The position numbers and the translations under genes are program-made. The notes beneath the pieces were generated by a model. It made no database searches and was not told the DNA's origin. It saw only the letters and a program-made list of their open reading frames with translations. A stretch of 64,000 nucleotides of DNA. Source: Microcystaceae cyanobacterium. GTDB lineage: Bacteria > Cyanobacteriota > Cyanobacteriia > Cyanobacteriales > Microcystaceae. How positions within the stretch are numbered: position 1 is the stretch's first letter; every line of letters begins with the position of its first letter. This document shows, piece by piece, positions 41,979 through 49,040 of this stretch. The DNA is taken from positions 9,991-73,990 of the forward strand of contig JBGTGT010000022.1 in the NCBI GenBank assembly GCA_041746575.1, in the 5' to 3' direction.

Positions 41979-42383
41979 TTAAGGGTTGCCGACAAGACCA
42001 AATAACTTTGCTAATCCACCGATAATGGCAAGAATTAAACCTAACACTACTCCTCGATTAATAAATTCTTGATAATCAAGACGTTTCGATATTCCGTCAA
42101 CTTTTTCTGCTAAGGACCTTATTTCTCCGGATAATCTTTCTTCCAATCGAGCTTGTCCCACTTCTAAATTAGTCAGACGTTCATCAATTTTATCCACTTT
42201 TTGATCGAATTTTTCTTCAAGCTGATCAAATTTTTGGTCAAATTTCCCCTCAAGCTGATCAAATTTTTGGTCAAATTTTTCCTCAATTCGCTCTAAATTC
42301 TGATTAACTTCTTTAATGCTTTGTTTAATTTCTCTTAAAATTTCTTCAAGAGAATAAGTGACACTAATCGGAGACTGGCTCAT
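41979..42383 (-). CDS. Small coiled-coil protein with C-terminal TM and 11-aa repeats (DUF4164/DUF1640-like)
   Basis: KFDQKFDQLE repeats (33-bp period); QEFINRGVVLGLILAIIGG. Confidence 0.7.
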   Translation of the reverse strand: MSQSPISVTYSLEEILREIKQSIKEVNQNLERIEEKFDQKFDQLEGKFDQKFDQLEEKFDQKVDKIDERLTNLEVGQARLEERLSGEIRSLAEKVDGISKRLDYQEFINRGVVLGLILAIIGGLAKLFGLVGNP

Positions 42384-44883: not shown

Positions 44884-46797
44884 ATGACTCAATTAGTTAA
44901 TTATTCCACCATGAACCATTTATCAGCCATCTGGCCGATCGCCGCCCAACGCTTTTCTGATATCGTCGCTCTTGATAATCCCCACAGTAAACCAGAAGTT
45001 AAACTCACCTATCAAGAATTGTGGGCGAAAATCCAGCAATTTGCCGCAGGATTGCAAGCACTAGGCGTTAAAGCATCTGATAAAGTTTCTCTATTTGCCG
45101 ATAATAGTCCTCGTTGGTTTATAGCCGACCAAGGAATTATGACCACAGGTGCAGCCAATGTGGTACGGTCTTCTCAAGCCGATCAACAAGAGTTATTATA
45201 TATTCTGCAAGATAGTGATAGTAATACCTTAATCGCTGAAGATTTAAAAACCTATAAGAAATTAAAAGACCATATAAGCAATATTTCCCTAGAAAGAATT
45301 ATTCTTCTTTCTGATGAAAACATCGAAACAGAAGAATCTGTTAAAGTCTTAAATTTTAGCCAATTAATGGAAGTAGGCGCAAATTCCAACTTAATTCCGA
45401 TTGAAATTTCTAAAGATTCCCTCGCAACCCTCATTTATACCTCTGGAACAACAGGACAACCAAAGGGGGCAATGTTATCCCATGGCAACTTACTTCATCA
45501 AGTCACCACCCTCGATGCTATCATTCAACCGCAACCGGGAAATACGGTCTTAAGCATTTTACCGCCTTGGCACGCTTATGAAAGAAGTGCAGAGTATTTT
45601 CTGCTCTCTCAAGGTTGCACGATGGTTTACACCAGTATTCGCACGTTTAAAAACGATTTAAAGAACTTTAAACCCCATCACATGATAGGTGTCCCCCGTC
45701 TTTGGGAATCTCTTTATGAAGGTATTCAAAAGAACTTTCGAGATCAACCTGAAAGTCGTCAAAAATTAATAACATTTTTCTTGAATATTTCAGAAAATTA
45801 CATAATCAACAAACGTATCGCTAATAAGTTAAGCCTTGATCACCTTCATGCTTCTAGTATTGAGCGTTTAATAGCAGATTTAAAAGCAATTGCCCTTTTT
45901 CCGCTTCATGCCTTAGGAGACAAACTGGTTTACCAAAAAATTCGGGAAGCAACAGGGGGAAGGGTTGAAACTTTCGTGAGTGGTGGAGGTTCATTAGCGA
46001 AACATTTAGACACCTTTTACGAAATTGTCAATGTTCCCCTCTTAGTGGGGTATGGTCTAACCGAAACGTCTCCTGTCACTAACGCACGTACTTTAACGCA
46101 TAATTTAAGAGGGTCTTCAGGTCGTCCGATTCCGCAAACAGACATTCGTATTGTTGATCTAGATACTAAACAAATTCTACCCCCAGAACAGCGAGGTTTG
46201 GTGTTAATTCGTGGACCTCAAGTCATGCAAGGGTATTATCAAAAACCCGAAGCGACGGCGAAGGCGATTGATGCCGAAGGATGGTTTAATAGTGGCGATT
46301 TAGGATGGGTTACCCAGCAAAATGATTTAGTTTTAACGGGGCGTGCCAAGGATACTATTGTTTTATCCAATGGCGAAAATATTGAACCGCAACCGATTGA
46401 AGATGCTTGCGTTCGGAGTCCTTACATTGATCAAATTATGCTGGTCGGTCAAGATCAAAAGGCATTAGGAGCTTTAATTGTTCCCAACGTGGAAGCATTA
46501 CAAAAATGGGCAGATAGTAAAAAGCTAAGCGTAAAATTCCCACAATCGGCTGATTCTTCTGCTGAAATTCCACAAAGTGATTGGTATAATGGGTCTGTCG
46601 TTGATCTATTTCGCCAAGAATTGAAGCGAGAGATCAAAAATCGCCCCGGTTATCGTCCTGATGATCAAATTAAGAGCTTTGAGTTTATTTTAGAGCCTTT
46701 TTCCCTTGAAAATGGTATGATGACCCAAACTTTGAAGGTTAAGCGTCCAGTCGTCACCCAACGTTACCAACACTTAATCAATCAAATGTTTGATTAG
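44884..46797 (+). CDS. aas: Acyl-ACP synthetase / long-chain fatty acid ligase
   Basis: YTSGTTGQPKG, GYGLTE, SGDLG, GRAKDTIVLSNGENIEP, TLKVKR. Confidence 0.85.
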   Translation: MTQLVNYSTMNHLSAIWPIAAQRFSDIVALDNPHSKPEVKLTYQELWAKIQQFAAGLQALGVKASDKVSLFADNSPRWFIADQGIMTTGAANVVRSSQADQQELLYILQDSDSNTLIAEDLKTYKKLKDHISNISLERIILLSDENIETEESVKVLNFSQLMEVGANSNLIPIEISKDSLATLIYTSGTTGQPKGAMLSHGNLLHQVTTLDAIIQPQPGNTVLSILPPWHAYERSAEYFLLSQGCTMVYTSIRTFKNDLKNFKPHHMIGVPRLWESLYEGIQKNFRDQPESRQKLITFFLNISENYIINKRIANKLSLDHLHASSIERLIADLKAIALFPLHALGDKLVYQKIREATGGRVETFVSGGGSLAKHLDTFYEIVNVPLLVGYGLTETSPVTNARTLTHNLRGSSGRPIPQTDIRIVDLDTKQILPPEQRGLVLIRGPQVMQGYYQKPEATAKAIDAEGWFNSGDLGWVTQQNDLVLTGRAKDTIVLSNGENIEPQPIEDACVRSPYIDQIMLVGQDQKALGALIVPNVEALQKWADSKKLSVKFPQSADSSAEIPQSDWYNGSVVDLFRQELKREIKNRPGYRPDDQIKSFEFILEPFSLENGMMTQTLKVKRPVVTQRYQHLINQMFD

Positions 46798-46911
46798 AAG
46801 GTGTTTTTCTAAAATTGGGTTGATTAATTGTTACAGAAAAACAAGCAATGGCGATCGCTCAGAAATCTCTAAAGCGGTACTATTAGGTACATAATCGCAA
46901 ATATAGTATCA

Positions 46912-47023
46912 TTGCCCACTCTGATTAATTTGAAAGATGATTAGGGAATTTTGTGGTCAAATATCTTAGATTATTTCTATAATTAGGCGATTTTTCCAGT
47001 TTGAAGATTTCACAAGCGATCTC
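46912..47023 (+). repeat. REP-derived ~155-bp repeat, copy 1 (degenerate, right half recognisable)
   Basis: ttgcccac...gtggtcaaatatcttagattat...gatttttccagtttgaagatttcacaa, ending in HIP1 variant gcgatctc. Confidence 0.65.
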
Positions 47024-47024
47024 T

Positions 47025-47249
47025 TCAAGCAACTTGATCCTGATAAACTTTAGGTATGGGTAAAGGTTCTCCTGCTAATTGGTAATCCTCGATTAATAAT
47101 TCTAATACTTCTACGCCGTTGGTCACAGCTTCTTCATAAGAATCACCATGAGTTCGCCATTTTTGACCTATGAAGTCGGGAAATCCTACTAAATAACAAT
47201 TGTTTTCTTCTGACCATTGAATAATCATTGTGTATTTAAGTTTATTCAT
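47025..47249 (-). CDS. hicB: HicB family antitoxin (short form)
   Basis: YTMIIQWSEE..YLVGFPD...THGDSYEEA...GEPLP. Confidence 0.9.
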   Translation of the reverse strand: MNKLKYTMIIQWSEENNCYLVGFPDFIGQKWRTHGDSYEEAVTNGVEVLELLIEDYQLAGEPLPIPKVYQDQVA

Positions 47250-47454
47250 TTTCTTGTTTCCTTTTGACTTCTTGGATGGCGTTTAAAACTTCTTTTTCTA
47301 AATAAATTTTAGCATCTGAGCTATCTTTTCCTGAAATTGTGATTCTTCCTTCATATAAAGGATGATACCAGTTTGAATGACTACCTTTGCCAGTACGAGA
47401 GGCAAATCCTGCTTTTTGTAACATTTTTTTGAGTTCTCGGATTTTCTGGGGCAT
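47242..47454 (-). CDS. hicA: HicA family mRNA interferase toxin
   Basis: ELKKMLQKAGF..GKGSH; overlaps hicB. Confidence 0.9.
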   Translation of the reverse strand: MPQKIRELKKMLQKAGFASRTGKGSHSNWYHPLYEGRITISGKDSSDAKIYLEKEVLNAIQEVKRKQENE

Positions 47455-47530
47455 TGATGAATATTGACACGATTTTTAATTATAGTTTATGTTAGTTATG
47501 TTAAAACATAGCAATCGCACTTTCTCAAGA

Positions 47531-47685
47531 GTAGAACGGGCAAGCATCGTTAATTTAGATGACACAGAATAACATTAATCGCTTGCTCACCAAAAGATTA
47601 AGATAATATCCCAAAGGTGAAATGGTGGTCAAAAATCTTGGATTATCCCATTCATTGATTGATTTTTCCAATTTAAAGATTTTAC
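47531..47685 (+). repeat. REP-derived ~155-bp repeat, copy 2
   Basis: gtagaacgggcaagc...gcttgctcaccaaaagattaagataa...ttac; colinear with copy 3. Confidence 0.85.
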
Positions 47686-47740
47686 AGGTGTTGTTAATTT
47701 ATGTTATCTTCAACTTGATAAATAATTCCATATTAATTAG

Positions 47741-47974
47741 ATGGTAAAAAGAGACAAGCTACTTCAGCGTCTTAAAAATAGTCCTAACAATGTTACATTT
47801 CAGGAAATTCGCAAATTATTAGAACTGGAAGGCTTTATTCTTGATAGAATTACAGGAAGTCATCATATTTTTACAAAAGCTGATATTGTTTTTGTGATTC
47901 CTGTTCATCGCAACCGAGTCAAAAGCGTTTATATTAGAAGAGTTATAGAATTGATTGAAGGAGACGAAACATGA
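47741..47974 (+). CDS. hicA: HicA family toxin
   Basis: VTFQEIRKLLELEGF..RITGSHHIF..IPVH. Confidence 0.9.
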   Translation: MVKRDKLLQRLKNSPNNVTFQEIRKLLELEGFILDRITGSHHIFTKADIVFVIPVHRNRVKSVYIRRVIELIEGDET

Positions 47975-48186
47975 ATTATCCAATGATTATTTATCCCTGT
48001 GAAGAAGGTGGGTTTGTTGCTGAAATTCCTGCGCTAAAAGGTTGTTTAGCACAAGGAGAGACTTTACAGGAAACGCTAGAAGAATTAATGATTGTCAAGG
48101 AATTATGGTTAGAAACCGCACACAAAAAAGGTCAAATACTTCCTGATGTTGAAGGAGAAATGGCGAAAATTAAAGCTCTTAGTTAA
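47971..48186 (+). CDS. hicB: HicB family antitoxin (short form)
   Basis: EEGGFVAEIPALKGCLAQGETLQE; ATGA overlap with hicA. Confidence 0.9.
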   Translation: MNYPMIIYPCEEGGFVAEIPALKGCLAQGETLQETLEELMIVKELWLETAHKKGQILPDVEGEMAKIKALS

Positions 48187-48201
48187 TTAAAACATCATAA
48201 G

Positions 48202-48357
48202 GTAGAATTGAAAAGCATAGTTAATTTAGATGATACAGAATAATATTAATAGCTTGCCCACCAAAAGATTAAGATAAATATCCCGAAGGTGAAATTATGG
48301 GCAATAACCTTGGATTATTTCGTTAATTGATTGATTTTCCCAATTTTCATACTCTAC
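48202..48357 (+). repeat. REP-derived ~155-bp repeat, copy 3
   Basis: gtag...gcttgcccaccaaaagattaagataaa...ctac, then HIP1 variant gcgatcac at 48360. Confidence 0.85.
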
Positions 48358-49040
48358 AAGCGATCACACTTACAAGTGGTCGCCTTAAGCTTTTTTCGGG
48401 TCGCAGAAGCAACACCCAACAAACCTAAACCAAGTAAACTTAAGATAGAGGAAGATTCAGGAACTGGAGGAATATCGTCGGGTATATGTACTCCCGTTAA
48501 AGTAAATGTGATGTCGTCATTTTCTGTAGGATAACTGTACAAAAGAGCGTATAGATCAGTATGTTCTGGTAAGTGTTCTTCAGATTTCAGAAGTAATTGT
48601 TGACTCATATTACCAGTTACGGGTAGTCCTGTAAATCCACCTCCCGGAAAGCTTTGAATACCCGATAATCGTCGATTGAGTAGAGTACCATTGTCGTTAT
48701 CAGTATCGTCGGCTGGAACTACATGTTGAGCAGAAACAAAAAAATCATAACCATTTACTTCATTGTCACTAAAAAATACCGAAAAATCCCAGCAAATTCC
48801 ATTATTAAATGGGCAGGTCTGTGCAAAATCACTTCTGCTTATACCAAATAACAATTCTGAGGCATCATTAGTACCATCCCATGAAAAAGTAGCAGTAAAG
48901 GAACTTCTGTTGTCCGCTAAACTGACATCAACAAAAGAACTTGCTTGAGCATTTGCGAAAGGTATTAAGGTAGCAAAAATTAGTCCTGTTGCCATTAAGC
49001 CGCTTTTAGGCTGAATTAATCTTATGAATAGTTGAGTCAT
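48354..49040 (-). CDS. PEP-CTERM protein
   Basis: Signal peptide ending AQA-S; PVPESSSILSLLGLGLLGVASATRKK; start uncertain (49040 chosen). Confidence 0.85.
   Translation of the reverse strand: MTQLFIRLIQPKSGLMATGLIFATLIPFANAQASSFVDVSLADNRSSFTATFSWDGTNDASELLFGISRSDFAQTCPFNNGICWDFSVFFSDNEVNGYDFFVSAQHVVPADDTDNDNGTLLNRRLSGIQSFPGGGFTGLPVTGNMSQQLLLKSEEHLPEHTDLYALLYSYPTENDDITFTLTGVHIPDDIPPVPESSSILSLLGLGLLGVASATRKKLKATTCKCDRL

Follow-up and report, generated by a model that had tools for sequence, protein, structure and literature searches.

A decayed array of long-loop GTAG REP dimers alternating with HicAB modules and a PEP-CTERM-type gene in a Microcystaceae cyanobacterium

The partnership between REP sequences and RAYT (TnpA-REP) proteins is already of a known kind (PMC5581495, PMC6006769, PMC8266576, PMC3733652, PMC3337134, PMC2817692). 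TnpA-REP recombines BIMEs in vitro, and both local amplification and the capture of flanking genes have been proposed for BIMEs (PMC3333891). REPINs are described as almost wholly vertical in their inheritance and as decaying once the RAYT is missing (10.1101/2021.07.10.451892), and why hosts keep RAYTs and REPs at all is an open question (PMC3337134; 10.1101/2021.07.10.451892). In cyanobacteria, GTAG REP families and their head-to-head (HH) dimers have been catalogued by Di Nocera et al. (PMC3733652), whilst the HIP1 sequence has been linked to site-specific recombination (PMC4390886).

Here we describe a repeat-punctuated array in the genome of a Microcystaceae cyanobacterium (designated G000; 99.8% complete, 4.2 Mb), found in a 64,000-nucleotide stretch of DNA that we refer to as the window. 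The array resembles the REP/BIME (REPIN) and TnpA-REP/RAYT systems (PMC3333891, PMC8266576, PMC3337134) in having GTAG hairpin dimers of a type that elsewhere in the family flanks a cognate RAYT, in tandem or local amplification and in decay where the RAYT is missing; the gene capture proposed for BIMEs is a further parallel. It differs from the published descriptions in three respects: the loops of 35–45 nt vary from locus to locus, the dimers are interspersed with unrelated toxin–antitoxin (TA) and PEP-CTERM genes that follow different orders in different species, and the dimers appear, in contrast to near-vertical REPINs, to have moved horizontally with those genes. The GTAG families of PMC3733652 share the outward-facing GTAG termini and a spacer of 20–100 bp but are given loops of 2–20 bp. 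In the mostly open-access literature searched, we found no description of REP-punctuated, reordered TA arrays in cyanobacteria.

Genes and repeats of the array

The array occupies the interval from aas (44884–46797) to the glutamate synthase gene (glsF; 49418 on), and its features are collected in Table 1. The initial annotation had described three GTAG…CTAC copies. Three same-orientation repeats, designated R1, R2 and R3 and spaced about 672 bp apart, are indeed present, but only R3 has both GTAG and CTAC, and the GTAG head of R1 is missing. The spacing itself is not conserved, lying at about 610–750 bp between copies in relatives. The left half and spacer of R1 are unrelated to those of R2 and R3 (46–60%), whilst its right half is related (64–75%).

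Table 1 Features of the array (positions in the 64,000-nucleotide window)
Feature	Position	Strand	Remarks
Exact HIP1 (GCGATCGC)	46851..46858		54 bp past the aas stop, left of R1
R1	46861..47013	+	Chimeric, 5'-truncated REP dimer; of the array type in its right half only, with a left half and spacer of a different type
HIP1 variant	47016..47023		Beside the hicB1 stop; the same 11-mer borders the G002 array on its left
hicB1 antitoxin	47025..47249	-	74 aa; Pfam HicB-like/UPF0150
hicA1 toxin	47242..47454	-	70 aa; Pfam HicA
HIP1 variant	47511..47518		12 nt ahead of the R2 GTAG; flanking sequence matches that of G002 copy d
R2	47531..47685	+	Decayed head-to-head dimer of long-loop GTAG REPs; ends TTAC
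hicA2 toxin	47741..47974	+	77 aa; Pfam HicA
hicB2 antitoxin	47971..48186	+	71 aa; Pfam HicB-like/UPF0150
R3	48202..48357	+	Decayed REP dimer; GTAG and CTAC ends
PEP-CTERM-type exported protein (predicted)	48354..49040	-	About 228 aa; rare
HIP1 variant	48360..48367		Within the last codons of the PEP-CTERM gene

A profile built from the three copies scores those same copies at E 1e-33 to 1e-42 and finds nothing else better than E 0.24 in the 4.2-Mb genome; with no further dimer found, identity as a scattered MITE was rejected. A search of Rfam with the repeat gave no match. Pairing between the hairpin arms is retained at six of ten positions in R2, five of ten in R3 and three of ten in R1. R2 folds no better than its shuffled versions (z 0.05), compared with z -2.4 for a copy in a same-genus genome (copy d of G002). 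A promoter scan of this AT-rich DNA was uninformative.

That the window holds two dissimilar HicAB modules on opposite strands was borne out, the two pairs aligning with each other over 15–20 residues only. In both, hicA lies upstream of hicB and overlaps it, as expected of type II HicAB modules, to which class we assign them on the basis of gene arrangement. The gene at 48354..49040 matches the Pfam PEP-CTERM model at E 0.011, below the gathering score, and the tail of its predicted product extends past that of its one homologue, which stops earlier. The stop codon (48354–48356) is the TAG of the bottom-strand GTAG of R3, and thus lies within the repeat, as had been annotated. A further claim, that no integrase or transposase is present, holds for the window as far as integron integrase and RAYT are concerned, the two classes that the check covered (best alignment 32 aa, E 0.29), but an integron integrase is encoded elsewhere in the genome. 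Taken as an observation, the array of repeats, HicAB modules and a PEP-CTERM gene is partly confirmed. The window also encodes, at 41979–42383, a protein of 134 aa that combines a repeated coiled-coil motif with a hydrophobic C-terminus and has only sub-threshold Pfam matches.

The long-loop REP family and its RAYT

Better-preserved copies in two genomes of the same genus (G001 and G002) reveal how the repeat is built: a head-to-head dimer that begins with GTAG, a GC-rich arm, a loop of 35–45 nt and the complementary arm, continues with a spacer of ~30 nt and closes with an inverted hairpin ending in CTAC. A GC-rich palindromic stem with GTAG immediately 5' of it is intact in relatives and has decayed in G000, and both the inverted dimer with a spacer and tandem amplification are found. 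The proposal that the unit is REP-derived is upheld. An exact pattern for the intact monomer matches in 27 of 89 Microcystaceae genomes, with no matches for the reversed control, and finds no intact monomer in G000, whose inventory is the three decayed dimers and at most one other decayed monomer. G001 and G002, by comparison, have many extragenic copies dispersed over about 40 loci (39 and 26 matches), most of them without TA neighbours.

Evidence for an enzyme comes from another genome of the family, G005, in which a RAYT on contig C4, scoring above the NF047646 cut-off, is flanked on both sides by dimers of 156 bp built in the same way. This protein could be aligned to 37 of 39 RAYT-like loci. 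All eight RAYTs with at least 60% identity to it have two to five long-loop REP heads within 700 bp, compared with none or one at the other 29 aligned loci. A RAYT tree did not separate the partners of long-loop REPs from those of short-loop REPs. The linked RAYT carries the DHLH and YIHYNP motifs given for TnpA-Y1 subclass 2.2 in the account of Quentin et al. (PMC6006769). A fixed cut site 5' of GTAG was not apparent, with no dominant CT among 149 REP heads. A second RAYT group (loci L188, L189 and L194), from a different genus of the Microcystaceae, has another long-loop GTAG REP on its flanks.

No match to PF01797 was found in G000. One candidate for a cognate RAYT there (C98:37957-38448) was rejected, being 26% identical to the G005 RAYT with a different REP beside it; this RAYT-like gene (locus L199) belongs to another subclass and has its own short REP nearby. 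Nor was a RAYT of the cognate group found in G001 or G002, where the best matches are 45–52% identical. Decay of the G000 repeats without their enzyme fits the published expectation, as stated for REPINs (10.1101/2021.07.10.451892).

For same-orientation copies, the median likeness of loops is 83% within a locus (20 pairs) as against 49% between loci (3105 pairs), and gene-free tandem runs of the REP are common in relatives. The copies in an array are therefore likely to have arisen by local copying, as has been proposed for BIMEs (PMC3333891). Among the tandem runs, L209:3083-3905 in genome G072 consists of eight REP monomers with a 109-bp period, and L207 and G072:C1:3479269-3480017 are made of tandem dimers.

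Module order and movement across relatives

One repeat subfamily is common to the arrays of the window, G001 and G002, but the modules that it punctuates are arranged differently. The order in G000 is R-hicAB1-R-hicAB2-R. In G002 the array adjoins pyk and reads hicB2-R-hicAB1-R-relB/yafQ-R-brnT module-R-R-brnA-like gene, whilst G001 has DUF433-R-hicAB1-R-relB at another site. Thus hicB2 follows hicAB1 in G000 and precedes it in G002, an order swap that rests on three same-genus metagenome-assembled genomes, one with 8% contamination and one 77% complete. Despite the changed order, each module keeps its own flank and the adjoining half of the repeat across species and loci. The hicAB1 modules of G000 and of G001 and G002 are 93% identical, whereas aas and pyk are only 75–78% identical, which points to horizontal transfer.

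None of 19 loci examined in relatives has a REP on the 3' side of aas, there is no array at pyk in G000, and searches of genome contigs returned the G001 and G002 arrays only. Metagenome contigs yielded one locus resembling the G002 array, and viral contigs searched with the subfamily pattern gave no match. Adjacency of aas and glsF was not seen in relatives among the matches listed, and neither G001 nor G002 yielded a glsF match. In hot-spring sequencing runs the aas–glsF interval is invariant and no contig skips a module, although contigs of this kind drop rare variants and two of the runs may be the source of the window DNA itself.

Filled and empty states of one locus were found in another genus. 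Between ldh and dnaK, only tandem dimers occur in G072 and a single insert in G071; in G064, REP copies of the same subfamily enclose a PIN module together with a PEP-CTERM-type gene, and G004 retains a remnant. The inserts at this locus start at nearly the same place, ~20 nt into the dimer spacer. Junctions in the arrays are imprecise, with breaks in the repeats at about 76, 104, 108 and 140 nt; the left break in G002 falls inside hicA2 and not within a repeat. The suggestion that modules moved at the repeats is therefore upheld as to blocks found in other orders and at other loci, and as to the filled and empty series, but not as to fixed boundaries, since the junctions vary and one lies inside a gene.

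That gene-plus-repeat blocks occur in other orders and places in relatives suggests that the repeats are likely to be loose recombination joints and not the sites of a true integron, and the interpretation offered in the initial annotation is in this sense partly supported. On balance, we favour the interpretation that the locus is a decayed REPIN/BIME-like array of long-loop dimers, probably amplified locally by a RAYT not found in G000, whose direct repeats probably serve as imprecise joints for module gain, loss, reordering and transfer. The direct evidence covers the identity of the repeat, its link to a RAYT group, locus-specific subfamilies, the swapped order, the high identity of modules across species and the filled and empty states.

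The steps involved can be envisaged as follows. A RAYT of the linked group would nick the DNA and carry out strand transfer, copying the dimer nearby, and TA and PEP-CTERM genes would enter in or beside the dimers by illegitimate recombination, an event that would often trim one hairpin and leave the stop codon of the gene at the junction. Crossovers between copies, promoted by RecA or the RAYT, could then delete or reorder gene-plus-repeat blocks. R1 appears to record one such crossover with a dimer of another type, and recombination of a block into another dimer would explain its chimeric structure. Some breakpoints in the G000 lineage may have been supplied by HIP1 sites, and with the RAYT absent the repeats would now be decaying. 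A more elaborate proposal, which we regard as unlikely, is that the RAYT group and the long-loop dimers make up an integrase-free cassette system, in which gene-plus-REP circles of single-stranded DNA are excised and integrated at other dimers, so that arrays of TA and PEP-CTERM genes are built, reshuffled and passed between species.

Passive co-location, HIP1 and integron readings

The alternative that fares best against a role for the repeats as joints is one of passive co-location, in which TA and PEP-CTERM genes accumulate independently where gene ends tolerate them, and the REP later hops over short distances around them, perhaps retained as a terminator, so that the repeats contribute little to gene movement. 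Several observations fit. No long-loop REP lies beside homologous hicAB genes in other genera (10 of 10 loci), nor beside the hicAB1 paralogue on contig C116 of G000. A hot spot upstream of hisG, found in 13 of 14 genomes and compared in detail in six, often has several TA modules in succession that no REP separates, and G066 shows a REP inserted ahead of a gene already in place there. Of 149 REP heads, 63 lie within 300 bp past a same-strand stop, and R1 and R3 each sit between convergent genes. TA enrichment near REPs is borderline: in a hand tally of non-independent loci, TA-type Pfam matches numbered 15 of ~167 near REPs (within 2 kb) and 4 of 131 otherwise (p 0.054), with 149 ORFs of at most 200 aa scanned out of 313 and the two arrays found via the window left out. 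In this tally DUF29, DUF433, DUF2281 and DUF5615 were counted as TA-linked, which we presume them to be. In part, then, the repeats are scattered without regard to accessory genes, given the dispersed copies in relatives described above and the weak enrichment. On the side of the joint reading, a regular expression recognised PEP-CTERM tails in 11 of 89 REP-adjacent ORFs, five of the 11 from one tandem array, as opposed to 4 of 224 other ORFs, and the background rate in G000 is 55 of 3961.

Other evidence makes passive co-location doubtful, though it is the most credible of the alternatives. Modules that gathered independently of the repeats would not be expected to retain their own flank and adjoining repeat half while their order changes, nor would the ldh–dnaK inserts be expected to begin at nearly one place in the dimer spacer. 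A role in termination sits poorly with R2, which lies between divergent genes, and a search of the repeats for a terminator-like site found none.

Several loci in relatives have cargo worth recording here. The TA cargo upstream of hisG differs in all six genomes compared (L218, L226, L227, L214, L228 and L232), and in about half of the 13 genomes this region has neither REP nor TA genes. At L112:2199-5866 (G001:C161) REPs of one subfamily punctuate a run of four or five paralogous PEP-CTERM-type genes, and at L117:1960-3817 (G001:C195) a REP lies between two PIN-like modules whose antitoxins are near-identical but whose toxins differ.

A second alternative would have HIP1-directed recombination assemble the modules, with the REP dimers as passengers. 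All four HIP1 or one-mismatch sites annotated at 46851, 47016, 47511 and 48360 are present. Exact HIP1 occurs in G000 at 0.42 per kb, and a HIP1-like site (at most one mismatch) lies within 30 nt of four of the six repeat ends, compared with 1.3% of 20,242 intergenic 30-mers, an excess that beats chance even when homologous ends are merged. A HIP1-like site marks the start of two edges of homology shared by G000 and G002, and in G002 a 6-nt word is repeated on either side of the hicB2 block. HIP1-linked recombination and SDR5, as presented by Elhai (PMC4390886), provide the precedent, the likeness being the HIP1-like sites at some junctions here. Three of the four sites are mismatched, however, two follow homologous repeat ends, and none of the REPs or junctions at ldh–dnaK has HIP1 nearby. 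No HIP1-like site lies within 30 nt of any of 149 intact REP heads in relatives, a scan that did not match the degenerate copy d of G002, which has such a site. HIP1 as a general boundary was thus not borne out and, unlike the HIP1-linked precedent (PMC4390886), the repeat here is not inserted inside HIP1, which is absent from the REP flanks of relatives. Assembly of the array by HIP1 therefore seems improbable; HIP1 may account for a few breakpoints in the G000 lineage but does not define the repeat unit.

TA genes are common integron cassettes, and the array shares with integrons and CALINs a changeable order of small genes that each have a repeat as partner and are in many cases TA genes. 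G000 itself encodes an integron integrase on contig C126, scoring 472 bits and above the TIGR02249 cut-off. Intact and located beside glmS, it has restriction-modification-like genes upstream (C126:7862-14642, L246), at the end of an element that, judging from gene order and size, we take to be Tn7-like; a broken copy lies at C120:70355, ahead of another pair of restriction-modification-like genes and of TA-like genes. The idea that the C126 enzyme acts in trans on the array, with the repeats as attC-like sites of a CALIN lacking its own integrase, is nonetheless largely refuted, and we regard it as highly improbable. A pattern test found no RYYYAAC…GTTRRRY core pair in the G000, G001 or G002 arrays, and neither integrase gene has a copy of the repeat family nearby. 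No integrase scores above the cut-off in G001, G002, G064 or G072, and the family to which the repeat belongs is one of RAYT-linked REPs. Unlike integrons and CALINs, the array has no linked integrase, carries genes in both orientations and has imprecise junctions; an attC/CALIN identity was accordingly rejected. Because the junctions vary in place, within repeats and a gene, and attC cores are lacking, the integron-like site-specific system suggested in the initial annotation is not supported.

What the array means for this family depends on which reading holds. Were passive co-location correct, the locus would be an ordinary TA hot spot with decayed repeats; were the RAYT cassette system real, domesticated RAYTs would gain a host-level function. 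These loci occur naturally in filled, empty and reordered states and supply defined substrates and a candidate enzyme (G005:C4), which makes the gene-capture idea directly testable; they also suggest that REP dimers can cross species lines together with cargo genes.
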